Below, piece after piece: positions 6,727 to 60,901 of a DNA stretch of 64,000 nt. Below the pieces are notes generated by a model. The model searched no databases. It was not told where the DNA came from and saw nothing but the letters and a program-made list of their open reading frames with translations. The stretch is from positions 1,000,690-1,064,689 of the forward strand of contig OY969472.1 of the NCBI GenBank assembly GCA_963700155.1, in the 5' to 3' direction. The translations under genes and the position numbers were made by a program. This DNA comes from an uncultured bacterium. Its GTDB lineage: Bacteria; Patescibacteriota; Dojkabacteria; J137. Position 1 is the first letter of the stretch. Every line of letters starts with the position of its first letter.

Positions 6727-6823
6727 TCCCCTAGGTAACTAATTCAGTTATAATTATCAAGTAATATTTTTTGAATAGATAAAAATCCAAGCTTTTTTTT
6801 AACTAAAATAACTTTTACCCTTC

Positions 6824-7048
6824 CTAGTATTTTTCCTTCTCAATTATTACCCATTTCCGAATAGAACTTGCAGTTCCATAAGCTTTTAATACCCTTTCGC
6901 TTTCTTTTGGTCGAACATACCCCCTTATTCTCCTCATTGAAGTTTCAAAATTTTTAGAAACATTAGATAGCTCAATCTTATTTTGTCTTGTAATAAGTAA
7001 AACCACTCCGAGAATTAATACTATTGAAAGCACAATTATGATTTCCAT
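6824..7048 (-). pseudogene. RmuC N-terminal paralog/fragment (74 aa)
   Basis: The first ~33 residues, MEIIIVLSIVLILGVVLLITRQNK..NVSKN, align with the RmuC N-terminus MEIVILALLIVLIFGVVILIARQGK..DVSKD. After that it diverges and stops. Confidence 0.3.
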
Positions 7049-7099
7049 AAAATATTAATGAAAATTAAGTGTTTATAGCATAGTGTATACTATCTCGCG

Positions 7100-7430
7100 T
7101 CAAATTTCTTTAAGGAATCAGGACCCTGAAAAGGGTCCTGTGTTGTCAAGCATATCTTTGTCGACAGCTGCCTATAAGCAAGCTTTAGTCGATTCCGAAT
7201 ATGCTCCAAGTGAGCTCATGTTCATCTGTGGGGTCCACCTGGAGGTAGAGTGGGATTTGGAAATCCTTTATACAGTCTCACATGAGCTCTCTGAACTCAA
7301 AGCAACTTTTATTTTGAATTCAGAAAACTAAGGTGTCTCAGGAGGCTTCAGAGAAGCCTCCTGATGAGCGGGGAAAGGAATAATGTTTTACAGGGAGCGT
7401 CACACCTTGTAACACAATCCTTTCCCCTCG
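7100..7430. ncRNA. Structured noncoding element of unknown family upstream of lepA
   Basis: The segment is locally GC-enriched relative to its AT-rich flanks. It contains several perfect hairpins: 7119-7140 (8 bp, GAAA-type loop), 7212-7220 paired with 7281-7289 (9 bp, long-range), 7338-7364 (12 bp), and 7370-7379 paired with 7418-7427 (10 bp). I could not match bacterial RNase P P4, tmRNA or SRP consensus. The overlapping 82-aa ORF is probably spurious. Confidence 0.3.
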
Positions 7431-7606
7431 TAGAGTTAAAGACAGTGAAGGATCCTTCCTATCACTTTGCCTTTAGAGCTCTATATTCTTATAACTAAAA
7501 TATTTAATTATGAAAGTACAAAGCTTTAGTTAAATTATATGATAATAGCTAATATCTGTCTATCTGTATTACCTTTCTGTTATAATTACACGTTTAACAA
7601 ATTACT

Positions 7607-10385: not shown

Positions 10386-10979
10386 ATGAATGATATTAGA
10401 AGTGAAAGATATTCAGCTAAACATGATCCATACAAAATTTTCTATGATTTAGGCTTAATGTTGAATGGACAATCAGGTACTACTGGTGTATTTTCTGATC
10501 CAGCTAAAAGGATAAATATAGTTGATGCATTGGAGGAAGATGAAATTTTATCTTCAAAAAAGTTAACAGAATTGGTAGCTTATAATTTGTGGTATAGACT
10601 TCAAATCATATTTGCTAATAATCTTGACATAAATTTAGAAGGAACAAGATTGTTGATGGCGCCAAATCCGGATACTAACGGATTTGGCGCCCAGTTAAAT
10701 GATTTTTTAATTGCAGCTAAGGATTTAGTAATTTTTCAAAATTACTATAAACAGATTCTTGATAAACTAGACGAATTGCACAGTGATTATTATCATAGAG
10801 TTGAGAAGTTTTTCACAGTAGAAAGGGTAAGTTTTAATAAAAGAGTTTTACAATTAGTTAAAGAATATCTTGAATATTTAGTTAAGAATAACTTTTATAA
10901 GGTTGAAGAAGTAATTTATAATATTCAAGATGTTATAGAATTAATAGATCAGTATTTTGAAGATAATTCTGAAATTTAA
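10386..10979 (+). CDS. Hypothetical protein
   Basis: ORF only. Confidence 0.35.
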   Translation: MNDIRSERYSAKHDPYKIFYDLGLMLNGQSGTTGVFSDPAKRINIVDALEEDEILSSKKLTELVAYNLWYRLQIIFANNLDINLEGTRLLMAPNPDTNGFGAQLNDFLIAAKDLVIFQNYYKQILDKLDELHSDYYHRVEKFFTVERVSFNKRVLQLVKEYLEYLVKNNFYKVEEVIYNIQDVIELIDQYFEDNSEI

Positions 10980-24980: not shown

Positions 24981-25153
24981 TTTTCAATAAATAAAAAATA
25001 TAATATGCACCTATAGACTTTAGCTCAAGAACTAAGTCTAGAAACATTAGATTAAATTCAAATAAATTAAATGCAATCTAATGTCTAGTTCTAAGTTCAC
25101 TAAAGTCTTAAAAATAACTAGTAATGATAGCAGAAAATGGCTTATAATTCAGT

Positions 25154-25501: not shown

Positions 25502-25513
25502 TAGCGTGAATTT

Positions 25514-51813: not shown

Positions 51814-53889
51814 ATGAAACCCTTAAGGATTACAATCCTTTTTATTATTATACTTTCATTAAGTATATTTCTTGCAGCTCCATTTTTTAGAATCTCGGCA
51901 AATGTAGTATCTGGTAAATATCTAATTAAAGTTGACAATAATTTTGATTTAAATAGCATCCAATATAATGAAATTAATAACCCAAAAAATTCAAATGGTA
52001 AATGGCTTGAACTTAATATAAAAAATGGAGCTGATTTGGAAGCTTTAAGAAATAATTCACATGTTCTTAATATTCAAAAAGAGGTTAAATATCAGACTAC
52101 CGATAATCCTGACGATCCTTATTATAATGAATTTGGTGGTGTACCTCCATTTACTGATAAATATGATCAGTGGAACTTAAGAGTAATAGGTCTTAATCCT
52201 ACTTCAGGAACATCAGGCTGGAATAATTCAACAGGAGATAATGGGACAATAGTTGCAGTAATAGATACTGGAATCGACCTTGGGAATGAAGATCTTCAGA
52301 ATAATTTATGGACTAACCTTGGTGAAACTCCTGGGAATAGTATTGATGATGATGGAAATGGTTATGTTGATGATGTTAATGGTTGGAATTTTGTTTCAAA
52401 TAGTAATGATATTCAGGATGTAGTAGTTTCTGGGAATGGTAAAGGACATGGAAGTCATGTTTCAGGAATTATTGCTGCTGATAGTAATAATTTAAAAGGT
52501 GTAGCAGGTGTTTGCTGGAATTGTAAATTAATGATATTAAATGTTTTTGATACGAATTCAACAACAAATGATGCAATAGTCTATAACGCTATCATTTATG
52601 CTGTAGACAATGGAGCAAAAGTTATTAATATGAGTATTGAAGGAGGTGGGTATTCCCAAAACATGCAAGATGCTGTTGATTATGCGTGGAGTCATGGAGT
52701 ACTTGTAGTAGTTGCTGCTGGTAATGATGGAGATGATGCATCGTATTATTCGCCTGCAGGTTTGAGTCATGTTATAACCGTCGGGGCTTCAGATCAGAAT
52801 GATACTTCAATTGCTTATGATCCAATCACATGCAATTCTCTAGTTTGTTTTTCAAATTATGGTCAAAAGTTAGATTTGATTGCTCCAGGATATAATATTT
52901 TATCTACGTGGCTTCATACTTTACCAAATACAAGTTGTGTTGGTGATACTAATTATTTTTGTTTAAGTGGAACTTCTATGTCAACACCACATGTAGCTGG
53001 GGTTGCAGCATTAATTTACGATCTACATCCGGGTTGGGATAATCTTGATGTAAGAAATGCATTGTTAAAAGAAGCTGATGATAAAGGTGCAGCTGGTTTC
53101 GATTCATTAGATGGTTTTGGAAGAGTTAATGCATATAATTCTTTAGAAAATGGTACTTCTGTATCAGGAATTACTTCCCCAACAGTTACATTAAATACTC
53201 CTGCAAATTTATATTTTAGTGATAATATAACACTCAATGGCACGGTAAATGCTGATGATTTATATATTTATAATTTGAAGTTTGAAAATTCAGGAAATAC
53301 TGTTTATCTCTATAGTGGACGAGGAAGTACAGACAATTCGGAATTAATAAATCAAGATGTGGGATTATCAGAAGGTGACTATGATGTAACTTTGTCTGCA
53401 GAAGATTTTAATGGAGCTGTAAGTTCGACTACTCCACTTACTATTCATGTTGATTTGACCCCTCCATCAAGTTTTACTATAGGAGCTCAAACAAGTAATA
53501 CATCTGTAACCTTAACTTTTTCGACAACAGATTCTTTGTCAGGAATATCTCATTATGAAGTATCTATGGATAGTGGTACATATCATACAAAGACGTCACC
53601 GTATATTGTTACAAACCTAAGTGATGGTTCTCACACAGCACATGTTAAAGCGTACGATAATGCAGGTAATGTTAAACAGGTAGATAAAACATTTACAATA
53701 ACATCAGAAAATTATATTTTAGAATCGAGCGGAGATTTTAATCATGATGACGATGTAGATTTGTCCGACTTAAGTATACTTGCCTCAAATTGGAACAAAA
53801 ACAGTAATAATGGAGATGCTAACCATGATGGTATTGTTGACTTATCTGATTTGAGTATTTTAGCTTTAAATTGGAATAAAACATTATAG
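51814..53889 (+). CDS. Subtilisin-like serine protease (S8) with Ig-like modules and two C-terminal dockerin-like repeats
   Basis: It has a signal peptide and the catalytic triad contexts VAVIDTGID, HGSHVSGIIA and GTSMSTPHVAG. The C-terminal repeats are DFNHDDDVDLSDLSILASNWN and DANHDGIVDLSDLSILALNWN. Confidence 0.85.
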   Translation: MKPLRITILFIIILSLSIFLAAPFFRISANVVSGKYLIKVDNNFDLNSIQYNEINNPKNSNGKWLELNIKNGADLEALRNNSHVLNIQKEVKYQTTDNPDDPYYNEFGGVPPFTDKYDQWNLRVIGLNPTSGTSGWNNSTGDNGTIVAVIDTGIDLGNEDLQNNLWTNLGETPGNSIDDDGNGYVDDVNGWNFVSNSNDIQDVVVSGNGKGHGSHVSGIIAADSNNLKGVAGVCWNCKLMILNVFDTNSTTNDAIVYNAIIYAVDNGAKVINMSIEGGGYSQNMQDAVDYAWSHGVLVVVAAGNDGDDASYYSPAGLSHVITVGASDQNDTSIAYDPITCNSLVCFSNYGQKLDLIAPGYNILSTWLHTLPNTSCVGDTNYFCLSGTSMSTPHVAGVAALIYDLHPGWDNLDVRNALLKEADDKGAAGFDSLDGFGRVNAYNSLENGTSVSGITSPTVTLNTPANLYFSDNITLNGTVNADDLYIYNLKFENSGNTVYLYSGRGSTDNSELINQDVGLSEGDYDVTLSAEDFNGAVSSTTPLTIHVDLTPPSSFTIGAQTSNTSVTLTFSTTDSLSGISHYEVSMDSGTYHTKTSPYIVTNLSDGSHTAHVKAYDNAGNVKQVDKTFTITSENYILESSGDFNHDDDVDLSDLSILASNWNKNSNNGDANHDGIVDLSDLSILALNWNKTL

Positions 53890-53929
53890 AAAAAGTTTCC
53901 TGTTTTAATTTAATTTTAAATACTATAAA

Positions 53930-55129
53930 ATGGGATTTATGAAGAAAAAAATATTAATCGTTTTTGTCGTAATTTTAAGTATATTTTTAACATTTCCAAA
54001 GGTTGACGCAGCATCAGTTAGTTTTTATACAACTGGAGGTGGAACTGTATATTACGGAAGTCAATTTAATATAAGTGTTTATGCAAACAGTTCAGATTCA
54101 TATAATGGATTTGAAATAAATGTAGATTACACAAACCTTACTTTTGTTGGAGTTTCTGCAGCATCTGGGTGGACTTGTATTGGTGGACCTTCTAATTCTG
54201 GTAATTCTGTTTATTCCGGAGGTTGTGCATTACTTGGAGGAAGTACAACTGGAAGTAAAAATATTCTTAATTTAACTTTTAGAGCTGTTAGCTATGCAGC
54301 AACAGCAACAATTAATAGCTCAGGTAAAATTACACTAGCTAATGGAAGTGGAACCAAAGTAAGTGGAGGCGGCAATACAGTTACTTATTATATAACTGAA
54401 GCACCGCCGCCTCCACCATCGGTACCAAGTGCAGTTAAAATTACTTCAAAAACTCATCCTTCTCAAAAAGATTGGTATAACAAAAATACAATAGAGTTTT
54501 CATGGAATAAAGAAGATGGTGTTGATGCTTTTAGTTATAGACTAGATCAAAAACCTGGTTTTACACCTGATACAAAAAGTGAAGGAGCTGCTACTACATA
54601 TACAACTGAAAATGTTCAGGATGGTATTAATTATTTTCATGTTAGAGCACATAATGATGTGGGGTGGGGGCCAGCGGTTGATTATACTGTGAAAATTGAT
54701 ATGACTGCTCCTGATCCTTTTGCTATTGCAAAGCTTGATAATGAAAGTGGTGATAAATATGTAATTTATTTTGCAACTAATGACAGCAGCTCTGGTATCG
54801 ATCATTATAACGTTGCGGTTGATGGTGTTGATATGGGGAAACAAGCTAGTGGTTATGAAGTTGATAAGTCTGTAGGTACAGTACAAGTTACGGCTTTTGA
54901 TAAAGCTGGTAATAGTATAAGTGAAAGTTTAGAAATTAATAATATTCCAGTAATAGTTACTAACGCACAAGGTGAAGTTCAAGGGTTTGTTTTTGATTTA
55001 AAATCAGCTTTAATTACTGTTGGAATTTTATTCATTCTTTTAATAATTGGTACTGCTCTTTTTATTTATATAAAGTATAGGAAGAAAAAAAACAATAGAA
55101 AAGCTGAGCAGGCACAAGCTCCTACATAA
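53930..55129 (+). CDS. Membrane-anchored surface protein with N-terminal cohesin-like domain, Pro linker and Ig-like modules
   Basis: It has a signal peptide. GSQFNISVYANSSDSYNGFEINVDYTNLTFVGVS resembles the cohesin core strands. A PPPPPSVPS linker follows, then modules homologous to the C-terminal modules of the S8 protease (T(A/P)PDPF...DS.SGI.HY.V..D). A C-terminal TM helix and a basic tail complete it. Confidence 0.45.
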   Translation: MGFMKKKILIVFVVILSIFLTFPKVDAASVSFYTTGGGTVYYGSQFNISVYANSSDSYNGFEINVDYTNLTFVGVSAASGWTCIGGPSNSGNSVYSGGCALLGGSTTGSKNILNLTFRAVSYAATATINSSGKITLANGSGTKVSGGGNTVTYYITEAPPPPPSVPSAVKITSKTHPSQKDWYNKNTIEFSWNKEDGVDAFSYRLDQKPGFTPDTKSEGAATTYTTENVQDGINYFHVRAHNDVGWGPAVDYTVKIDMTAPDPFAIAKLDNESGDKYVIYFATNDSSSGIDHYNVAVDGVDMGKQASGYEVDKSVGTVQVTAFDKAGNSISESLEINNIPVIVTNAQGEVQGFVFDLKSALITVGILFILLIIGTALFIYIKYRKKKNNRKAEQAQAPT

Positions 55130-55820
55130 TTATCTTATTGAGTTCATTTAGATTTAAAATCTTTAATCGACCATATCTTGTTTGAATTAAACCTTTAGAT
55201 TTTAACTCTCCTAATTTTCTAGTAGCAGTTTCTCTTGTAGTTCCGGCAAATGATGCAATTAATTCATGTGATATATTTAAATTGAAATCAATAGTATTTT
55301 CCCTCTTATCTCCTAAATTTTCTGCAAGACTTACTAATGTAGATATAATACGGTATGAACAATCGTGATAGATTAATTGTTTTGCTTTATTAATAACTCT
55401 ATTTACATTTTGGATATAAAGACTTGAGGCGTTACTTCTGGCATCTGGGTTTAATCTTAAAAAATCACCCATTACCCCTTTAGGTATTATCCTAAGTTCA
55501 GATTCTGTTAAAGTTTCATAAAAACATAGTGCAGTCTCATCTCCCTCAAAGTATGGATTTAATGGTAATAAAGAATTATTTTTAAATATACTAATACTTA
55601 ATTCATTTCCATCAACTGATGTAACAAAACTTCTGATAAATCCTCTCTCTAGAAAGTAAAAATTTTCAGATGTGGAATTGGGAGTTAGTATTATTCTCCG
55701 TGGTGGTAAAACATGGATAGAATGTAAAAGGCAGAAGTTCTTGATTTTTTCAGATGTCTTCACCATTAATATAGTACTAAAAATCTTAGTAATATACTCT
55801 CTTATTGACTGAGTATACAA
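55122..55820 (-). CDS. Crp/Fnr-family transcriptional regulator
   Basis: It has a cNMP-binding beta-barrel and a C-terminal HTH (SHELIASFAGTTRETATRKLGELKSKGLI). Confidence 0.8.
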   Translation of the reverse strand: MYTQSIREYITKIFSTILMVKTSEKIKNFCLLHSIHVLPPRRIILTPNSTSENFYFLERGFIRSFVTSVDGNELSISIFKNNSLLPLNPYFEGDETALCFYETLTESELRIIPKGVMGDFLRLNPDARSNASSLYIQNVNRVINKAKQLIYHDCSYRIISTLVSLAENLGDKRENTIDFNLNISHELIASFAGTTRETATRKLGELKSKGLIQTRYGRLKILNLNELNKIIM

Positions 55821-55865
55821 TATATATATTATTCGTCAAGACTGAACAATGCTATCAGCTATAAG

Positions 55866-55881
55866 TGTGATTATTATCACT
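55866..55881. promoter_or_regulatory. CRP-like palindrome TGTGA-ttatta-TCACT
   Basis: It lies in the divergent intergenic region between the Crp/Fnr gene and the first TasA-like gene, 68 nt upstream of the 55949 start. Confidence 0.45.
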
Positions 55882-55948
55882 GTGTTTAATTTAATATTAT
55901 TCTAAATTTCATCTAAAGTCCAAATATTTTATTTTTTATTTTTTATTT

Positions 55949-56590
55949 ATGACCAGAATACTTTCTGGATTACTATTAGTTACTATGCTAGTAGTTTCAG
56001 TGGGAGGCGCAACTTTAGCACTTTTTAGTGACCAGTCAGATATAAAAGGCTTAACTGTAAGCGCAGGTAATGCAAATATCCAATTGGGTTACACTAATGC
56101 TCCTAATAGTCATGTGTTTTTACCAGGCGATTTAGATTTTGGCGGGTCACCTTTTGAAGGCCCCTTATATCCTGGATATCATGCAGGGGTAGTAACTAAT
56201 TTAGATGCTAAAGATTTGTGGGTTGCAAATGTAAGTGCTGCACCTGTTGCTCTTAATTTATCAATGAAATTGACTACATTACCAACAAATTGGGGTAACC
56301 AATTATCATATGCTATAGAAGTTTTAGTAAAAGATGAAAATAGTGGTTTAAACACTGGCTGGATCACTATGACAAGATGGGATGATGCTTATGTTGATTT
56401 ACCTGGTGGATCACTTGCATCAGGTACTTCTAGAAGGTTCTTTATATTTACTAGAGTTCCATTTCATTATGGAGATAATGATTCTTCCTATGCTGGTGGA
56501 CCTACTTTAGGTTCAGATATAGGAAATGAGATTGCAAATCAGACATTATCTGGTGGAGCATTCACAGTATTAGGTGAACAAGTTCCTTAA
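55949..56590 (+). CDS. TasA/camelysin-like protein with SipW-cognate signal peptide (paralog 1)
   Basis: The N-terminus is ...VGGATLALFSDQSDIKGLTVSAGNANIQL (the GGTxAxFSD..NT..AG motif). The shared C-terminal strand is GNEIANQTLSGGAFTVLG. Confidence 0.65.
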   Translation: MTRILSGLLLVTMLVVSVGGATLALFSDQSDIKGLTVSAGNANIQLGYTNAPNSHVFLPGDLDFGGSPFEGPLYPGYHAGVVTNLDAKDLWVANVSAAPVALNLSMKLTTLPTNWGNQLSYAIEVLVKDENSGLNTGWITMTRWDDAYVDLPGGSLASGTSRRFFIFTRVPFHYGDNDSSYAGGPTLGSDIGNEIANQTLSGGAFTVLGEQVP

Positions 56591-56607
56591 TTCTAAAAAT
56601 AGGTTAA

Positions 56608-56634
56608 AAGGGCTCAAATGGAATTTGAGCCCTT
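56608..56634 (+). terminator. Hairpin terminator (12-bp stem, 3-nt loop)
   Basis: AAGGGCTCAAAT-gga-ATTTGAGCCCTT. Confidence 0.55.
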
Positions 56635-56688
56635 CCTATTTATCTTCGTAAAATTATTCCTTTGCTATATACGTTTATAGAATATAAT

Positions 56689-56704
56689 TGTGATATTTAT
56701 CACA
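56689..56704. promoter_or_regulatory. CRP-like palindrome TGTGA-tattta-TCACA
   Basis: It has perfect half-sites and lies 63 nt upstream of the 56767 start. Confidence 0.5.
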
Positions 56705-56766
56705 TTTAATTATTTCTATATTTTCTAAAATTTAAATATCTCTTTTTTATTTTTTAATTTAATTTT

Positions 56767-57300
56767 ATGAAACGGATTTATGCTGCGTTTATAGTGATTA
56801 TTCTGCTTGCAGTTGGAGTAGGAGCAGCAACTTATGCTCTACTATCTGATACTGCAAAAGTAGATGGTATAACACTTGCTACAGGTAATGCAGATATTCA
56901 AATATCAGATGATAGTTTAAACTTCGTTGAAGATTATCCTGTCTCAGATAGTATAACTGGTTTGGTACCAGGTTATCAAAGTCCTACAATAAATTTCCAT
57001 TTAAAAAATAATGGTACAGTAGACCTTCATGTCACTGTAAGGCTTACTCATGCAGATGATGATTGGGCAGCTTTGAAAGATAATGTATATATTCATGTAA
57101 TATCAGCAGATACTGGTATTGATCATGATTTTACACTAGCACAATGGAATTCAACTGACAGGGATCTTGGTAATTTAAGCGTTGGAAGTACTGCAGAATA
57201 TTCTGTTGATGTTCATGTTCCTTCATCAGTTGGAAATGAGATTGCAAATAAACAAATTAATAATGTTACTTTTATTGTAACTGGAACGCAGATTCTTTAA
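56767..57300 (+). CDS. TasA/camelysin-like protein with SipW-cognate signal peptide (paralog 2)
   Basis: N-terminus VGAATYALLSDTAKVDGITLATGNADIQI. C-terminus VGNEIANKQINNVTFIVTGTQ. Confidence 0.65.
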   Translation: MKRIYAAFIVIILLAVGVGAATYALLSDTAKVDGITLATGNADIQISDDSLNFVEDYPVSDSITGLVPGYQSPTINFHLKNNGTVDLHVTVRLTHADDDWAALKDNVYIHVISADTGIDHDFTLAQWNSTDRDLGNLSVGSTAEYSVDVHVPSSVGNEIANKQINNVTFIVTGTQIL

Positions 57301-57356
57301 GAATTAAGTAGTAAGTAATTTTAATATTTAACTCTTTTATATATTAGTTTAACTTT

Positions 57357-57893
57357 ATGAAGCGAATATATGCTGGTTTTATGATAGTGATTCTGCTTGC
57401 AGCGGGTGTTGGAGCAGCAACTTATGCTTTTTTATTTGATAACGCAACAGTAGAAGGAATTTCTATCTCAACAGGAAATGCTGATATTCAAATATGGGAT
57501 GGTTCTGAATATAAAGACTACTGGTTTGTTGGAGCAGCTTTAAATGGATTGTATCCAGGTGCTAGTGAGATTGTTGATGCTAAATTAAAAAATGCAAGTA
57601 CTTCTGATATACCACTTAAAGTTTCATTACAATTAACAAGTGCTGGTGGTGATTGGGGGGCACTTAAAGATGCAATTAAAATTAAAGTTGCAGACAATAC
57701 TAATACAACAGTATATCTTAACAAGACATTATCTGAACTTAATTCTCAAGCTTGGGACTTTGGTCCTGATATCCCTTTTGGTGGTGATCAAGAATATAAA
57801 ATAACAGTGTATATTCCTGATTCATTTGGAAATGAAATTAAGAATAAGACCATTAATCCTGTTCAATTTGTAATAACAGGTACACAGGATTAA
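57357..57893 (+). CDS. TasA/camelysin-like protein with SipW-cognate signal peptide (paralog 3)
   Basis: N-terminus VGAATYAFLFDNATVEGISISTGNADIQI. C-terminus FGNEIKNKTINPVQFVITGTQ. There is no terminator between paralogs 2 and 3. Confidence 0.6.
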   Translation: MKRIYAGFMIVILLAAGVGAATYAFLFDNATVEGISISTGNADIQIWDGSEYKDYWFVGAALNGLYPGASEIVDAKLKNASTSDIPLKVSLQLTSAGGDWGALKDAIKIKVADNTNTTVYLNKTLSELNSQAWDFGPDIPFGGDQEYKITVYIPDSFGNEIKNKTINPVQFVITGTQD

Positions 57894-57905
57894 TTTTGGT
57901 TATTG

Positions 57906-57934
57906 AAGTGATTGTTTAGGCGCTTAAATTGAAA
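57906..57934 (+). terminator. Hairpin terminator (13-bp stem)
   Basis: AGGCGCTTAAATT-gaa-AATTTAAGCGCCT followed by a T/A-rich run. Confidence 0.55.
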
Positions 57935-58070
57935 ATTTAAGCGCCTTTAATATATTTATATAATTAACATCAATATAAATTTAACAATTTTAGTAATATA
58001 TTCAAATATACATTATATATACAGTAAAAATTAAATTAATATAAAGTAGTTATAAATAAATAGAATTAAT

Positions 58071-58086
58071 TGTGATTTATATCACT
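58071..58086. promoter_or_regulatory. CRP-like palindrome TGTGA-tttata-TCACT
   Basis: It lies 62 nt upstream of the 58148 start, the same spacing as the other sites. Confidence 0.45.
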
Positions 58087-58147
58087 GTTATAATTTCATT
58101 TATGTTTTAAATTAATCGTAAATATTTTATTTCTTATATATTATTTT

Positions 58148-58726
58148 ATGGTAAGAATACTAGCGGGATTTCTCGTAATAGTTTCTTTATTAACAGCTGT
58201 AGGAGGAGCAACATTAGCTGTTTTTAGTGACACAAGCGAAATATTAGGTAATACAATTTCAACAGCACAGGTAGATATTGATGCACACGGTGAGTCAAAT
58301 AATACCACAGCACCAAAACCAATTGATGAAAGTGGCTTGGTTCCAGGTGAATGGACAGATTGGTTTAGAGGTATAGTTTATAATAAAGCAGATAGTACAA
58401 ATGTAAGAGTTTATATGTATTTAAGTAATGTTACAGGAGCTGCATGTAGTAAAACTAATTTAACTGTTAGAACAGGTTTTGCTGGAAGTGATGCAGGAGA
58501 AAGAGCAAACTCAATGTATGATGGTTCAGTCGCAGGTTTGACAGGACCAGGTAATAGAATAGAACTTACAGGTCCAGTATTTCATGCACCTGACTGGCTA
58601 CCATATAATACATCATTAGTAGTACAACAGGCTGCACAATTAGACCCTTCAGCTGGTAACACATACACAAATAAATCTTGTGATTGGTCAGAAGTATTTG
58701 TAGCTGAGACACCTACCTTACCTTAA
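58148..58726 (+). CDS. TasA/camelysin-like protein with SipW-cognate signal peptide (paralog 4, divergent C-terminus)
   Basis: N-terminus VGGATLAVFSDTSEILGNTISTAQVDIDA. The body is divergent. Confidence 0.6.
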   Translation: MVRILAGFLVIVSLLTAVGGATLAVFSDTSEILGNTISTAQVDIDAHGESNNTTAPKPIDESGLVPGEWTDWFRGIVYNKADSTNVRVYMYLSNVTGAACSKTNLTVRTGFAGSDAGERANSMYDGSVAGLTGPGNRIELTGPVFHAPDWLPYNTSLVVQQAAQLDPSAGNTYTNKSCDWSEVFVAETPTLP

Positions 58727-58749
58727 GTTAGGACTTTTTTAGCTTTTAA

Positions 58750-58776
58750 AGTCCCGGCAATTTCATTGCCGGGACT
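58750..58776 (+). terminator. Hairpin (12-bp stem), weak T-tract
   Basis: AGTCCCGGCAAT-ttc-ATTGCCGGGACT. Confidence 0.45.
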
Positions 58777-58818
58777 GTTGGTATTTAATATATCTGTATA
58801 GAATGTTAATATTAGTCA

Positions 58819-59385
58819 ATGAAAAATTCATCACCTTTGAAAGTTGTTTATAAAGTTATTGTTACAATAGTATTAATTCTTTTTGTTGCTTTAGCAACTT
58901 TAACAATACTCTCTTTATTAGAATTTCCAAGACAATTTAGAATCTTTGTTGTCGAAACAGGATCAATGTCTCCAACAATTCCTGCCGGGAGTTTGATTAT
59001 TGATTCTAGTGAGAATACATATAAAGTTGGGGATATTATTACTTTTAATGCTCTTGCCGATTCTGAATCTACAAAAGTTACACCGATAACTCATAGACTT
59101 ACCCAGATTATTCAACAAAATGGTGTTACAGTATATGAAACAAAGGGAGATGCAAACAATGCTCCTGACGGGGAATATCGAGATCCAAATAATGTAATAG
59201 GTAAAGTACAATTTTATTTACCTTATGTTGGAACACTAGTTGGTTTTGCAAAAACACAACTTGGATTCGTTATAGTAATACTGATTCCAACAATATTAAT
59301 TATTTTGAGCGAACTTAATAACATTAAAAAAGAATTTATAAAACTAAAGGAAAAGAAAAGTGAGAAGTTAAATATTAATACGTAA
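58819..59385 (+). CDS. sipW: Signal peptidase I, SipW (archaeal/ER) type
   Basis: It has an N-terminal TM helix, the catalytic Ser context VETGSMSPTIPAGSLII, and a C-terminal TM helix. Its size of about 190 aa is SipW-like. Confidence 0.8.
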   Translation: MKNSSPLKVVYKVIVTIVLILFVALATLTILSLLEFPRQFRIFVVETGSMSPTIPAGSLIIDSSENTYKVGDIITFNALADSESTKVTPITHRLTQIIQQNGVTVYETKGDANNAPDGEYRDPNNVIGKVQFYLPYVGTLVGFAKTQLGFVIVILIPTILIILSELNNIKKEFIKLKEKKSEKLNINT

Positions 59386-59389
59386 CCTT

Positions 59390-59626
59390 ATGTTAAAAAA
59401 ATTTTTAGTAGTAGTAATTATTATAACTAGCTTTTTGATCATGGCTCAAGGAACAAAAGCATTATTCTCCGATGTGGAGCATATTCCTAATAATACTATC
59501 AGTACTGCAGATTCGTTTTCAATTGAACACGATGAGAATCAAGTCACTAATCCTAAAGTTCCAGATGACACTGAAAATGAGCAGCAAACTACTGAACCTC
59601 CAATAAGCTACTCATTAGACCATTAG
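59390..59626 (+). CDS. Short TasA-like protein (signal peptide plus ALFSD..NTISTA motif, 78 aa)
   Basis: It starts 4 nt after the sipW stop (operonic). Sequence MLKKFLVVVIIITSFLIMAQGTKALFSDVEHIPNNTISTADSFSIE followed by an acidic/Pro tail. Confidence 0.45.
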   Translation: MLKKFLVVVIIITSFLIMAQGTKALFSDVEHIPNNTISTADSFSIEHDENQVTNPKVPDDTENEQQTTEPPISYSLDH

Positions 59627-59674
59627 ACAATCCCAAGTGTGTAAAGTGGAGCGAAATGAGGTATAATAACCTTC

Positions 59675-60901
59675 ATGGAATTAATTTATCTGCTTCATTT
59701 TTATCAACCTGACTTTCAGTTCAGAGAAATCTTAGAAGAAGTTTACAATAAATCATATAAAAAAGTTTTTAAGATAATTAAGGATTCTCCAAATGCAAAA
59801 ATAGCAATTAATATTACTGCCTCGACAATTGAGAAAATTAATAACTATAATGCAGGAGACATCATTAGAGATCTAAAAAGTCTATATAAAACCGGAAGAG
59901 TAGAATTTACTGCTACTAGTCTGGCACATGTACTTCTTTCTGAAGCAACTTATGAGCAAGCTTTAAGACAAATTAAACTAGATATAGAGAAAAAATCTTA
60001 CTTTTTGGATATACCAGAAAAAGAATTTAAAGTTTTGTTTCCACCCGAACTAAGTATAAATCCCCAAGTCTTAAAGCTTGCGAAAAATTTAGGAATTGAA
60101 GGATTAATCGTTTCTCATAATTCAATTGAAAATTTTAAAGAAGGTGATACTACTTTATTAAACTCTAATCAGAAAATATTTGTAAGATCTCTGAAGGTAA
60201 GTCGAATGTTAGAATCTGAGAATACAATGACTTCTGAAGAATTTTTAAATATTTTTCAAGAACAAGGATTAGAAACTAATGGATTATATTTAGCTGCTCA
60301 TGACGTAGAAATTATTGGTTTTCGATTTGAAAAGAAACTTAAACTTTTTAAAGAGATTTTAAATAATCCTAAAATTAAATTAGTTTCTTTTGATCAAATA
60401 CTAAAAATGAATAAATTTAAGAGTTATAATGGTAAGTTGCTTCAAGGAACTTGGGAGAAAATTTTGATTAATGATGAACTAAGTGATGTACATTGGAATA
60501 ATCCTGAAAATAAGATTCATAAATATCAATGGAAGCTTTCAAATTTAATAATTAATCAGATCGAGAAGTTTCCTGAAATTAATACTAAATCAGAACTTCA
60601 AATTCATTTAGATTATATACAGTATAGTTGTCAATATTGGTGGGCAAGTTCATATCCGTATTGGAGTGCTGGGATAATTTCAAATGCTGCTTGGTCATGG
60701 TTATATCTAGCATATAAAGTCTATTATGCTTTAAAAATGATTGATAAAGAAAAAGCTGAAAGGTTTATTAACCAAGCAAAACAAAATTATATGCGTTTAA
60801 TTGAGACATTAACTGAATATGATATTACAAAATGGCATGAAAAAAATATTCATTATTATGATCAAAATATACATTCTCTAAAATTATCTTATAAATTATG
60901 A
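59675..60901 (+). CDS. Glycoside hydrolase family 57-like protein
   Basis: The N-terminal pattern LLHFYQP...EEVYNKSYKKVFKIIKDSPNAKIAINITASTIEKI parallels the GH57 H-x-H-Q-P...EEAYNRSY...P..K....FSG.LLE.I region. The HxH motif is degenerate. It overlaps the glgA start. Confidence 0.45.
   Translation: MELIYLLHFYQPDFQFREILEEVYNKSYKKVFKIIKDSPNAKIAINITASTIEKINNYNAGDIIRDLKSLYKTGRVEFTATSLAHVLLSEATYEQALRQIKLDIEKKSYFLDIPEKEFKVLFPPELSINPQVLKLAKNLGIEGLIVSHNSIENFKEGDTTLLNSNQKIFVRSLKVSRMLESENTMTSEEFLNIFQEQGLETNGLYLAAHDVEIIGFRFEKKLKLFKEILNNPKIKLVSFDQILKMNKFKSYNGKLLQGTWEKILINDELSDVHWNNPENKIHKYQWKLSNLIINQIEKFPEINTKSELQIHLDYIQYSCQYWWASSYPYWSAGIISNAAWSWLYLAYKVYYALKMIDKEKAERFINQAKQNYMRLIETLTEYDITKWHEKNIHYYDQNIHSLKLSYKL

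Follow-up and report, generated by a model that had tools for sequence, protein, structure and literature searches.

Putative CRP-type operators before TasA-like genes point to a probable local class II activation circuit in a small AT-rich genome

Crp/Fnr-family proteins are no strangers to the control of surface appendages, since SYCRP1 of Synechocystis and Vfr of Pseudomonas recognize TGTGA-type sites and control pilus or fibre genes, but both are cAMP-dependent, global regulators and control type IV or chaperone-usher-like pili, not fibres of the TasA type. The family is also versatile: NtcA, the cyanobacterial nitrogen regulator, is a Crp/Fnr class II activator with GTA-N8-TAC sites, class I activators are positioned at -61.5 and -71.5, and some members repress. 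The tapA-sipW-tasA operon of Bacillus, by contrast, is under the control of SinR, AbrB and RemA, not of a Crp-family protein. In Bacillus subtilis the three genes that give this operon its name make up a single operon (PMC9245690). For CRP it has been described that an arginine, a glutamate and a second arginine of the recognition helix contact TGTGA, that the cAMP signature residues are E72, R82, S83, T127 and S128, that -41.5 is the standard activating position in the Crp/Fnr family, and that a distance of 22 bp from the site to position 2 of the -10 element is exclusive to class II promoters, for which Thermus thermophilus TAP/TTHB099 provides the structural model of activation (PMC10187061). 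Ligand dependence is not universal either, and the CRP of Gardnerella vaginalis is reportedly not ligand-regulated (PMC11445507).

Here I describe a locus in a 64-kb window (the whole stretch of DNA that was analysed) in which a divergently transcribed Crp/Fnr-family gene lies beside four TasA-like genes, and in which three palindromes, whose reading as CRP-type operators is well supported in silico, precede three transcription units (Table 1). I consider it likely that a dimer of the adjacent regulator binds these three sites and activates the three TasA-type units in class II fashion; that the adjacent regulator is the protein that binds, that it activates rather than represses, and where transcription starts is what I infer from the features set out below. 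Seen as a whole, and again with good support in silico, the locus would be a gene switch of conventional type with unusual targets, in a small AT-rich genome that probably belongs to a Patescibacterium.

Table 1. Features of the locus, with positions in the window; promoter elements, start positions, folding energies and terminator roles are predicted.
Feature	Position	Strand	Description
Crp/Fnr-family regulator gene	55122-55766	-	214 aa; ATG at 55766
Regulator promoter, TTGACG-16 nt-TATACT	55812-55839	-	Consensus scan 10/12; TG two bases 5' of the -10
CRP-type palindrome 1	55866-55881	+	TGTGATTATTATCACT; divergent region between regulator gene and paralog 1; counterparts in L002, L003 and L005
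-10-like hexamer 1, TAAATT	55903-55908	+	21 nt after site 1; start at about 55915
TasA-like paralog 1	55949-56590	+	213 aa; SipW-dependent-type signal peptide, TIGR04088 21.1 bits (cutoff 19)
Hairpin 1	56608-56634	+	12-bp perfect stem, GGA loop, weak T-tail, -19.3 kcal/mol; probable terminator of paralog 1
CRP-type palindrome 2	56689-56704	+	TGTGATATTTATCACA; perfect
-10-like hexamer 2, TAAAAT	56726-56731	+	21 nt after site 2; start at about 56738
TasA-like paralog 2	56767-57300	+	177 aa; weak Peptidase_M73 match, 17.2 bits, below the 22.5 cutoff
TasA-like paralog 3	57357-57893	+	178 aa; 49% identical to paralog 2
Hairpin 2	57918-57946	+	13-bp perfect stem, GAA loop, weak T-tail, -17.4 kcal/mol; probable terminator of the paralog 2-3 unit
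CRP-type palindrome 3	58071-58086	+	TGTGATTTATATCACT
-10-like hexamer 3, TAAATT	58108-58113	+	21 nt after site 3; start at about 58120
TasA-like paralog 4	58148-58726	+	192 aa; most widely conserved subfamily
Hairpin 3	58750-58776	+	12-bp perfect stem, TTC loop, -22.1 kcal/mol; probable terminator of paralog 4
SipW-type (archaeal-type) signal peptidase I	58819-59385	+	TIGR02228 107 bits (cutoff 51.85); SipW model NF046067 99.5
78-aa protein	59390-59626	+	SipW-type signal peptide; only a short strand-like segment

All three palindromes noticed by the first-pass annotation were recovered when the operator pattern TGTGANNNNNNTCACW was scanned over both strands of the window, and they are the only intergenic matches to TGTGA-N6-TCAC(A/T) in the 64 kb, where 0.26 would be expected; the strand-matches number 5 against the same expectation, a count reached in 0 of 100 shuffles. 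With the longer palindrome TGTGAT-N4-ATCACA the three sites show 0-1 mismatch and the rest of the window 2, and with a PWM built from 10 sites, a scan that is partly circular as the matrix includes the window's own three, they score 20.8-24.9 bits against 14.9 bits for the next best match and a shuffle maximum of 13.5. Beyond coding sequence, neither the mismatch scan nor the PWM scan gave a further match in the window above shuffle level. Several candidates were judged to be chance matches, namely the fourth pattern match at 53620-53635 (within the coding region of an S8 peptidase, without the T and A at positions 6 and 11, and absent from L002 and L005), the 14.9-bit match at 10779 (within a coding region), L107:1134 (within a SipW transmembrane segment) and L113:3986 (overlapping a Shine-Dalgarno-like AAGGA).

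The same arrangement is found in related loci. In L002, L003 and L005, whose regulators are 50-56% identical to that of the window, TTGTGAT-N4-ATCACA is retained in front of every TasA-like gene amid diverged intergenic DNA; where spacers have diverged between loci, the conserved bases are exactly the half-site Gs and Cs, and the L005 site is the exact E. coli CRP consensus TGTGA-N6-TCACA, TGTGATCTAGATCACA. The regulator of L086 is only 31% identical (helix SRENTTR), and the divergent gap of this locus holds a perfect TGTGATGTAAATCACA with TAATAT at +22; in L109 a divergent regulator with the helix SRETTTK is found with the symmetric variant palindrome TGTAATTAAAATTACA, a pairing that hints at co-evolution, the operator having moved from TGTGA to TGTAA and the helix from RE...R to RE...K. 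Three lineages carry site and regulator together, and both are lacking from about 16 related TasA-like loci for which adequate flanking sequence was available. A GTDB genome scan with the single regulator sequence gave no match, and one with the regulator alignment returned only distant Crp/Fnr paralogs of at most 31% identity, which are useless for footprinting. Rarity, regulator family, a CRP-type helix and this co-occurrence across lineages together bear out the earlier suggestion that the palindromes belong to the CRP/FNR class of operators.

The divergent gene, whose start codon was picked through alignment with four orthologues, is a Crp/Fnr-family member, as had been proposed: the protein has a C-terminal Crp-type helix-turn-helix (HTH_Crp_2 PF13545, 62.2 bits, cutoff 27; Crp PF00325, 29.5, cutoff 21) and an N-terminal cNMP-binding-like beta-roll domain (cNMP_binding PF00027, 30.9 bits, cutoff 27.5), and its residues 15-206 can be aligned with the structures of CRP and NtcA. 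The R-E-x-x-x-R of CRP is present in the recognition helix, TTRETATRKL, and GTTRETxTRKL is invariant across five orthologues, including R178, E179 and R183. The description of the protein as a cNMP-type regulator, however, finds no support, for the five cAMP signature residues of CRP align to L69, A79, L80, V124 and I125, so that 0 of 5 are kept, and the alignment of the five orthologues has no R-S or R-T pair in the cAMP-contact segment; judged from this alignment, the sensor domain is not a cAMP pocket. TAP/TTHB099 and the G. vaginalis protein are Crp-family members that act without cyclic nucleotide, although the sensor domain of TAP has 82 aa and that of the regulator described here is full-length. 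Overall identity to E. coli CRP is 22%, and the score against the CRP equivalog NF008732 is 45 bits, short of its cutoff of 266. The Fnr model gives 21.3 bits against a cutoff of 228, and the protein has only one semi-conserved Cys (near residue 81) and a helix with a leading Arg, where FNR has an N-terminal Cys cluster for an Fe-S centre and an E--SR helix lacking that Arg. Among PDB sequences NtcA and CRP match best, and NtcA is the best NCBIfam match as well, yet the regulator cannot be called an NtcA because it scores 57.7 bits against a cutoff of 245; the NtcA helix, moreover, reads R-V-T-V-T-R where this one reads R-E-T-A-T-R. Unlike the global E. coli CRP, the protein appears to behave as a local, dedicated regulator within the 64-kb window, and beyond it the regulon may include a larger set of targets.

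What, then, is constant about the placement of the sites? The first-pass annotation had given distances of 68, 63 and 62 nt to the start codons of paralogs 1, 2 and 4, and measurement from the end of the site to the first base of the ATG agrees with all three, but the idea of a fixed distance to the start codon does not hold, as the constant spacing runs instead to a -10-like hexamer. Inside the window the site-to-ATG distance varies by as much as 6 bp, and across relatives it ranges from 49 to 123 nt (a 74-nt spread), whereas in 10 of the 11 sites of the window and related contigs TAnnnT follows the 16-bp site at offset +22 (at +23 in the eleventh), against a background of 0.088 per position in the offset control, a comparison in which spacing is measured to a predicted -10 and orthologous promoters among the 11 sites are not independent observations. 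Hexamers of this kind are easily found in DNA of 10-25% G+C, and the offset control speaks against chance. TATAAT boxes precede many genes of the window, and because they are so common the organism is taken to use a sigma-70-type -10. Relative to the predicted starts the site centre lies at -41.5, the geometry of a class II activator, with the second base of the predicted -10 at 22 bp from the site, and by eye no -35 hexamer (TTGACA-like and correctly spaced) is recognisable at the three site promoters; RETxxR helix contacts, the 22-bp spacing and the apparent lack of a -35 are all shared with the class II promoters of E. coli CRP. In some T-rich leaders there are, in addition, weak -10-like hexamers lying 5-6 nt 5' of the ATG, which, if they were real promoters, would give leaderless transcripts and sites centred near -70 to -75, but such leaderless promoters with class I-like sites were rejected since site-to-ATG distance varies and site-to-TAnnnT distance is exact. 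Positions 55700-59700 gave no Rfam match with an E value up to 1, so this segment contains no known riboswitch and no known leader RNA. The whole window contains only two tRNAs.

Activation by the adjacent regulator would then proceed as follows. A dimer would bind the three palindromes, reading TGTGA via its CRP-like R-E-x-x-x-R helix, and each site would overlap and substitute for the -35 element of a sigma-70-type promoter, with its centre at -41.5, such that the active regulator could recruit RNA polymerase to paralog 1, to paralogs 2 and 3 and to paralog 4, and the three separately terminated units would lead to secreted, SipW-processed subunits of a TasA-type fibre. The same protein and sites might instead work in the opposite sense, as repressor operators that occlude the -35 region and keep the fibre genes off until a signal arrives; the site spans -49 to -34 and is able to block RNA polymerase, the AT-rich DNA upstream (8.9% G+C in the 124-nt spacer directly 5' of palindrome 3) could be an UP element conferring activator-free promoter activity, and repression does occur among Crp/Fnr members. 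I nevertheless regard repression as unlikely, as there is no -35 hexamer for a repressor to occlude, -41.5 is where activators of this family normally sit, and a spacing to the -10 that is exactly 22 bp in lineages that have diverged fits contact between activator and polymerase, where occlusion would tolerate variation.

It is also conceivable, if decidedly improbable, that the sites are read by another, global CRP-like protein encoded elsewhere, with the adjacent regulator serving other targets, given that the site scan covered 64 kb of a contig of at least 1.14 Mb, that another Crp/Fnr paralog may exist elsewhere and that the site is the universal CRP consensus, to which any protein with an RE...R helix could bind. 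The adjacent regulator itself has the right helix, however, it accompanies the site in three lineages and is missing together with it from the roughly 16 loci mentioned above, and no second Crp/Fnr gene adjoins the cluster in related loci. Almost no credence is due to the view that the palindromes are accidents of AT-rich DNA or functionless leftovers of cassette duplication: the intergenic DNA is indeed very rich in A+T and duplication did give rise to the paralogs, but the rarity against expectation and shuffles, the conservation of half-site G and C bases while spacers diverged, and the fixed TAnnnT spacing effectively refute it, and paralogs that are 26-31% identical (bar the 2/3 pair) imply that neutral promoter sequence would have decayed.

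As an addition to class II activation by the adjacent regulator, and not a replacement for it, site 1 could be bifunctional and also control the divergent regulator gene, which I regard as possible but doubtful. Autoregulation through this site had been suggested by its location within the shared 182-bp divergent region, and, as read from the sequences, a TATAAT or TATACT box does lie at a distance of 48-50 nt from it both in the window and in L002, L003 and L005, a roughly conserved spacing. This spacing, however, sets the centre at -67.5 to -69.5 (near -68.5 at site 1), about 3 bp off the class I phase of -61.5 and -71.5, the predicted promoter of the regulator gene includes a -35, or else an extended -10, and appears self-sufficient and activator-independent, and the L086 site, only 40 nt from the regulator GTG, has another geometry, all of which leaves the proposal without positive support.

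In small AT-rich genomes of uncultivated organisms, transcription factors with an assigned operator, promoter class and target set are few, and the locus offers a complete wiring scheme that can be tested directly, with one regulator, three promoters of identical geometry and four TasA-type genes, followed by the SipW peptidase gene, before which neither the pattern scan nor the PWM scan detected a CRP-type site. TasA-type matrix or fibre genes would here be under predicted Crp-family control, unlike the SinR/AbrB/RemA circuit of Bacillus. The sites match the E. coli CRP consensus and E. coli CRP should therefore bind them, which is a caveat for heterologous expression and at the same time an experimental handle in a crp-deletion host. 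A far more tentative proposal, which I would not expect to hold in full, is that in ultra-small bacteria, which probably depend on a host, a Crp/Fnr activator with a remodelled cyclic-nucleotide pocket is the dedicated master switch for donor-strand fibres of the TasA type, coupling fibre production, and perhaps attachment, to a signal other than a cyclic nucleotide, and that the regulator, its operator and the fibre genes form a single module that moves and evolves as a unit across lineages.

With regard to the targets, the TasA-like label is upheld by the SipW-type peptidase (TIGR02228) and by the AlphaFold model of paralog 4 (pLDDT 88.6), whose best Foldseek match in the PDB is the TasA fibre 8aur_A (E 4.4e-6, probability 1.0, TM 0.58), followed by CS20 pili, AbpA and CanA; on this model paralog 4 has the TasA-type jelly-roll fold of donor-strand fibre subunits. 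It has 44 homologues, one of them from a Candidatus Moranbacteria MAG; this member and the general style of the genome are the basis for the probable placement in the Patescibacteria. A profile of the paralogs matches AbpX (E 0.013) and their alignment has a common A-x-F-S-D motif, and the threshold of Pfam PF12389 (TasA/camelysin) is not reached by any of them (17.2 vs 22.5 bits for paralog 2, no match for paralogs 1, 3 and 4). Like the tapA-sipW-tasA operon of B. subtilis, the locus combines a TasA fold, SipW-type signal peptides, a dedicated SipW-type peptidase and a small protein that may be an accessory, the last being the 78-aa product, possibly TapA-like, with 18.3 bits to TIGR04088 (cutoff 19) and an E of 0.0023 to the TapA model TIGR04087, both below cutoff; an 89-aa gene takes its position in L005. 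The differences are that B. subtilis has one operon where three separately promoted and terminated units are predicted here, and that the PF12389 match here is below cutoff.

The modular organisation proposed in the first-pass annotation, with its own promoter and hairpin for each transcription unit, agrees with these predictions, and so does the singular status of paralog 3, whose 56-nt upstream gap was scanned and contains neither a site nor a hairpin; paralog 3 is probably co-transcribed with paralog 2. That the cassettes arose by duplication stands in so far as the paralogs did, but any cassette duplication would be ancient, the proteins being 26-49% identical (26-31% apart from the 2/3 pair, and 27% over full length between 1 and 2), and because identity is so low the shared promoter elements have been kept by selection. 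Each unit does end in a perfect stem of 12-13 bp with a 3-nt loop, but the hairpins are not near-identical as had been stated, since, compared by eye, hairpins 1 and 2 agree in about 80% of their arm sequence, with a single indel, and hairpin 3 is unrelated in sequence: what the three have in common is design, not sequence. The T-tails are weak, and a terminator consensus scan picked up two of the three hairpins (1 and 3), hairpin 2 being missed because of its weak T-tail. Further hairpins built in this way lie at 25506, 30617 and 50973 of the window.

Three palindromes of the form TGTGA-N6-TCAC(A/T) lie before the first, second and fourth of four TasA-like fibre genes (paralogs 1-4), and the pattern search recovered them just as a first-pass annotation had reported, with the same distances of 68, 63 and 62 nt to the ATG. 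The one remaining match in the 64-kb window, at 53620, falls within an S8-peptidase coding region and is without the extended T/A positions. Five strand-matches were observed against a mean of 0.26 in shuffles (0/100 shuffled windows had as many), and when the palindrome is lengthened to TGTGAT-N4-ATCACA, mismatches number 0-1 in the three sites and 2 in all other window hits. A 22-bp PWM gave the three sites 20.8-24.9 bits, compared with a shuffle maximum of 13.5 and a runner-up of 14.9 bits in coding sequence, a test that is partly circular because the PWM was derived from 10 sites including the window's own. As also described earlier, the 56 nt ahead of paralog 3 hold no site and no hairpin.

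Features of the fibre-gene cluster, its regulator and the related locus L109 (positions in the window unless marked L109)
Feature	Position	Strand	Evidence or detail
Crp/Fnr-family regulator, 214 aa	55122-55766	-	HTH_Crp_2 62.2 bits, cNMP_binding 30.9 bits
CRP-type site 1, TGTGA-N6-TCAC(A/T)	55866-55881		pattern search of window
CRP-type site 2, TGTGA-N6-TCAC(A/T)	56689-56704		pattern search of window
CRP-type site 3, TGTGA-N6-TCAC(A/T)	58071-58086		pattern search of window
U-rich run (ATATTTTATTTTTTATTT...) in predicted 5' UTRs	55924-55948, 56736-56766, 58121-58147		
78-aa protein with SipW-type signal peptide, after the fibre-gene cluster	59390-59626		signal-peptide model, score below cutoff
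TATAAT/leader examples	upstream of starts 10311, 25154, 29810, 37721, 59675	-, +, -, +, +	
L109 regulator	L109 594-1220	-	helix SRETTTK
L109 variant symmetric palindrome TGTAATTAAAATTACA in divergent gap	L109 1267-1282		TACAAT at +23

When the 3 window sites were aligned on the palindrome with 8 from related contigs (n=11, the orthologous ones not being independent of one another), a TAnnnT hexamer (TAAATT, TAAAAT, TAGATT, TAATAT and similar) began 22 nt past the 16-bp core at 10 sites and 23 nt past it at the remaining one, whereas no other offset from 1 to 55 had more than four matches, against a background of 0.088 per position. The distance from site to ATG is 49-69 nt in the close clade and 121-123 nt in L086 and L109, two loci with paralog-4 relatives, and since this distance varies while that to the hexamer is fixed, the constrained distance is to the promoter and not to the start codon; the earlier idea of a fixed distance from start codons is to be corrected accordingly. 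Many window genes have TATAAT boxes, hence the organism uses a sigma-70-type -10, and relative to the predicted -10 the site centre lies at -41.5, with 22 bp from the site to the second -10 base, a spacing exclusive to class II promoters according to a review of CRP proteins (PMC10187061). No -35 hexamer was seen by eye at these promoters, where the site covers -49 to -34.

The regulator is encoded divergently beside the cluster, its start at the ATG at 55766 is backed by alignment with four orthologues, and it reaches no curated NCBIfam equivalog, the top being NtcA with 57.7 bits where 245 are required. Across the five orthologues the recognition helix, GTTRETxTRKL, does not vary, and it holds the R, E and R found in RETVGR of CRP, whereas NtcA, the closest overall by sequence, has R-V-T-V-T-R; the interconversion experiments of Spiro and Guest are said to show that the leading arginine separates CRP from FNR specificity. 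In CRP these three residues touch G bases of TGTGA (PMC10187061). The cAMP signature residues of CRP (E72, R82, S83, T127 and S128; PMC10187061) align to L69, A79, L80, V124 and I125, in an alignment of 22% identity whose register may shift by a residue or two, and no R-S or R-T pair occurs in the sensor-domain segment of any of the five aligned orthologues. Judged by this alignment, and even allowing for such a slip, the motif is simply absent, and with none of the five residues kept the earlier label of a "cNMP-type" regulator is not supported; the protein may be ligand-independent, as some family members are reported to be (PMC11445507, PMC10187061).

The contigs of the four orthologous regulators (50-56% identical) were compared, one of which, L004, reaches no further than the regulator gene and is uninformative. 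The other three (L002, L003 and L005) are syntenic with the window and carry TTGTGAT-N4-ATCACA before every TasA-like gene, the palindrome being kept although spacers and flanks have diverged, and L005 has the exact E. coli consensus TGTGATCTAGATCACA. In L086 and L087 (GCA_036746275.1) a regulator 31% identical, with helix SRENTTR, stands divergent from a paralog-4-type gene, and the gap holds a perfect TGTGATGTAAATCACA with TAATAT at +22. Paralog-4 relatives were further surveyed in 22 metagenome loci and four loci from long contigs, a neighbouring regulator being sought with the regulator HMM in L086-L110 and in Pfam tables for L111-L113; among these only L109 has one, and the others have no upstream site, so that site and neighbouring regulator, present or missing jointly, co-occur. 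L109 pairs a change of R to K in the helix with G to A in both half-sites, and since R185 touches base four of TGTGA (PMC10187061) this hints at co-variation of operator and helix, a suggestive but single, post hoc and anecdotal case. A second copy of TTACAATTA..AAATATCCC directly follows the L109 palindrome. In L002, a CRP-like 16-mer (AGTGATTCTCATCACA) inside the regulator's coding sequence (2100-2115), absent from the window and L005, is probably a chance occurrence.

For the window sites, in contrast, chance is excluded, being contradicted by both counts and conservation. I consider it probable, given the spacing and the helix, that the adjacent regulator would bind as a dimer at -41.5 and switch on three class II promoters, with predicted transcription starts near 55915, 56738 and 58120 and U-rich leaders of 28-34 nt. 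Repression via the same sites is improbable, as the promoters have no -35 that could be occluded and activation is what demands exact spacing, and it is unlikely, as far as 64 kb can tell, that another CRP-like protein encoded elsewhere in the genome reads them, for the co-occurrence pattern speaks against it. Autoregulation of the regulator gene through site 1, as proposed earlier, is doubtful and finds no support: measured against the regulator's -10, the site centre in the window and in L002, L003 and L005 falls between -67.5 and -69.5, off the class I phase, and in L086 the geometry differs, the site being just 40 nt from the regulator's GTG, which leaves no consistent geometry on that side. 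The regulator's own predicted promoter (TTGACG, 16 nt, TATACT) looks complete.

Operator, helix and promoter class are textbook; new are the TasA-type fibre genes as target set, a cAMP pocket predicted to be lost, a regulator that within the window appears local in scope, and the setting, a genome of ~30% G+C nearly without Shine-Dalgarno sequences. Bacillus TasA-type fibre genes are under SinR/AbrB/RemA control, whereas here, from sequence alone, they have CRP-type sites beside a Crp/Fnr-family gene. The main value lies in a fully specified, readily testable model of regulation for a group that is poorly understood.

Promoter, gene and hairpin form modular units, in keeping with the earlier proposal of cassette duplication, but their coding regions are strongly diverged, so any such copying was not recent and the common site, spacing, -10 and leader were therefore kept by selection. 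The paralogs are mutually alignable, and only 2 and 3 (49% identical; remaining pairs 26-31%) look like a more recent tandem duplication, which left the promoter uncopied. Hairpins 1-3, which follow paralogs 1, 3 and 4, have perfect stems of 12, 13 and 12 bp, loops of 3 nt, predicted energies of -17 to -22 kcal/mol and weak T-tails; arms of the first two are ~80% alike by eye and the third is unrelated in sequence, so the terminators once called near-identical are alike in design, not sequence. Others of like design lie at 25506, 30617 and 50973, which suggests that such hairpins are the usual terminators of this genome and cluster at the fibre genes owing to the separate termination of each unit; L002 and L005 have hairpins of unrelated sequence at orthologous positions.

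All four paralogs have an N-terminal signal peptide with a common A-x-F-S-D end, and paralog 1 scores above the cutoff of the SipW-dependent signal-peptide model. A structure model of paralog 4 (43-sequence alignment, pLDDT 88.6) has the TasA fibre 8aur_A as its best PDB match (E 4.4e-6, probability 1.0, TM 0.58), followed by the donor-strand fibres CS20, AbpA and CanA; the paralog profile matches AbpX weakly (E 0.013), and against Pfam PF12389 the paralogs score under threshold. The label "TasA-like" is thus right for fold and SipW-type secretion route, but not for Pfam membership. A SipW-type peptidase gene (TIGR02228, 107 bits) lies 3' of the cluster. TasA homologues were already recorded in Patescibacteria in a survey (PMC9245690), and one paralog 4 homologue comes from a Candidatus Moranbacteria MAG. 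The 78-aa protein, which past its signal peptide consists of little besides a single strand-like segment (NNTISTADSFSIE) and a tail rich in acidic residues, matches the TapA N-terminus weakly, under cutoff, and may donate a strand to the fibre as its initiator or cap; L005 has an 89-aa gene at the equivalent position. Beside the regulator, 51814-55129 encodes a membrane-anchored protein of 399 aa without a Pfam hit and an S8 subtilase bearing Ig-like repeats, neither with a CRP-type site upstream; in L002, L003 and L005 both are found at this same place, and the subtilase there additionally shows dockerin-like hits.

Only 4 of 54 long ORFs in the window have a Shine-Dalgarno-like motif upstream; TATAAT ends 5-7 nt before the ATG in several genes, which suggests leaderless transcripts for these, and other genes have short AU-rich leaders. 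The U-rich run is conserved in the orthologues of L002, L003 and L005, beginning ~7 nt past the -10 in these; it matches no Rfam family and may be a Shine-Dalgarno-independent translation leader; similar runs lie near 24989(-) and 26461(+). Elsewhere, a G+C-rich hairpin with a perfect 12-bp stem (7338-7364) lies in 880 nt (6727-7606) that contain no ORF of at least 100 aa and match no Rfam family at gathering threshold. Hairpin 2 and site 3 are separated by 124 nt (57947-58070) of 8.9% G+C, which may serve as an UP element or as curved DNA.
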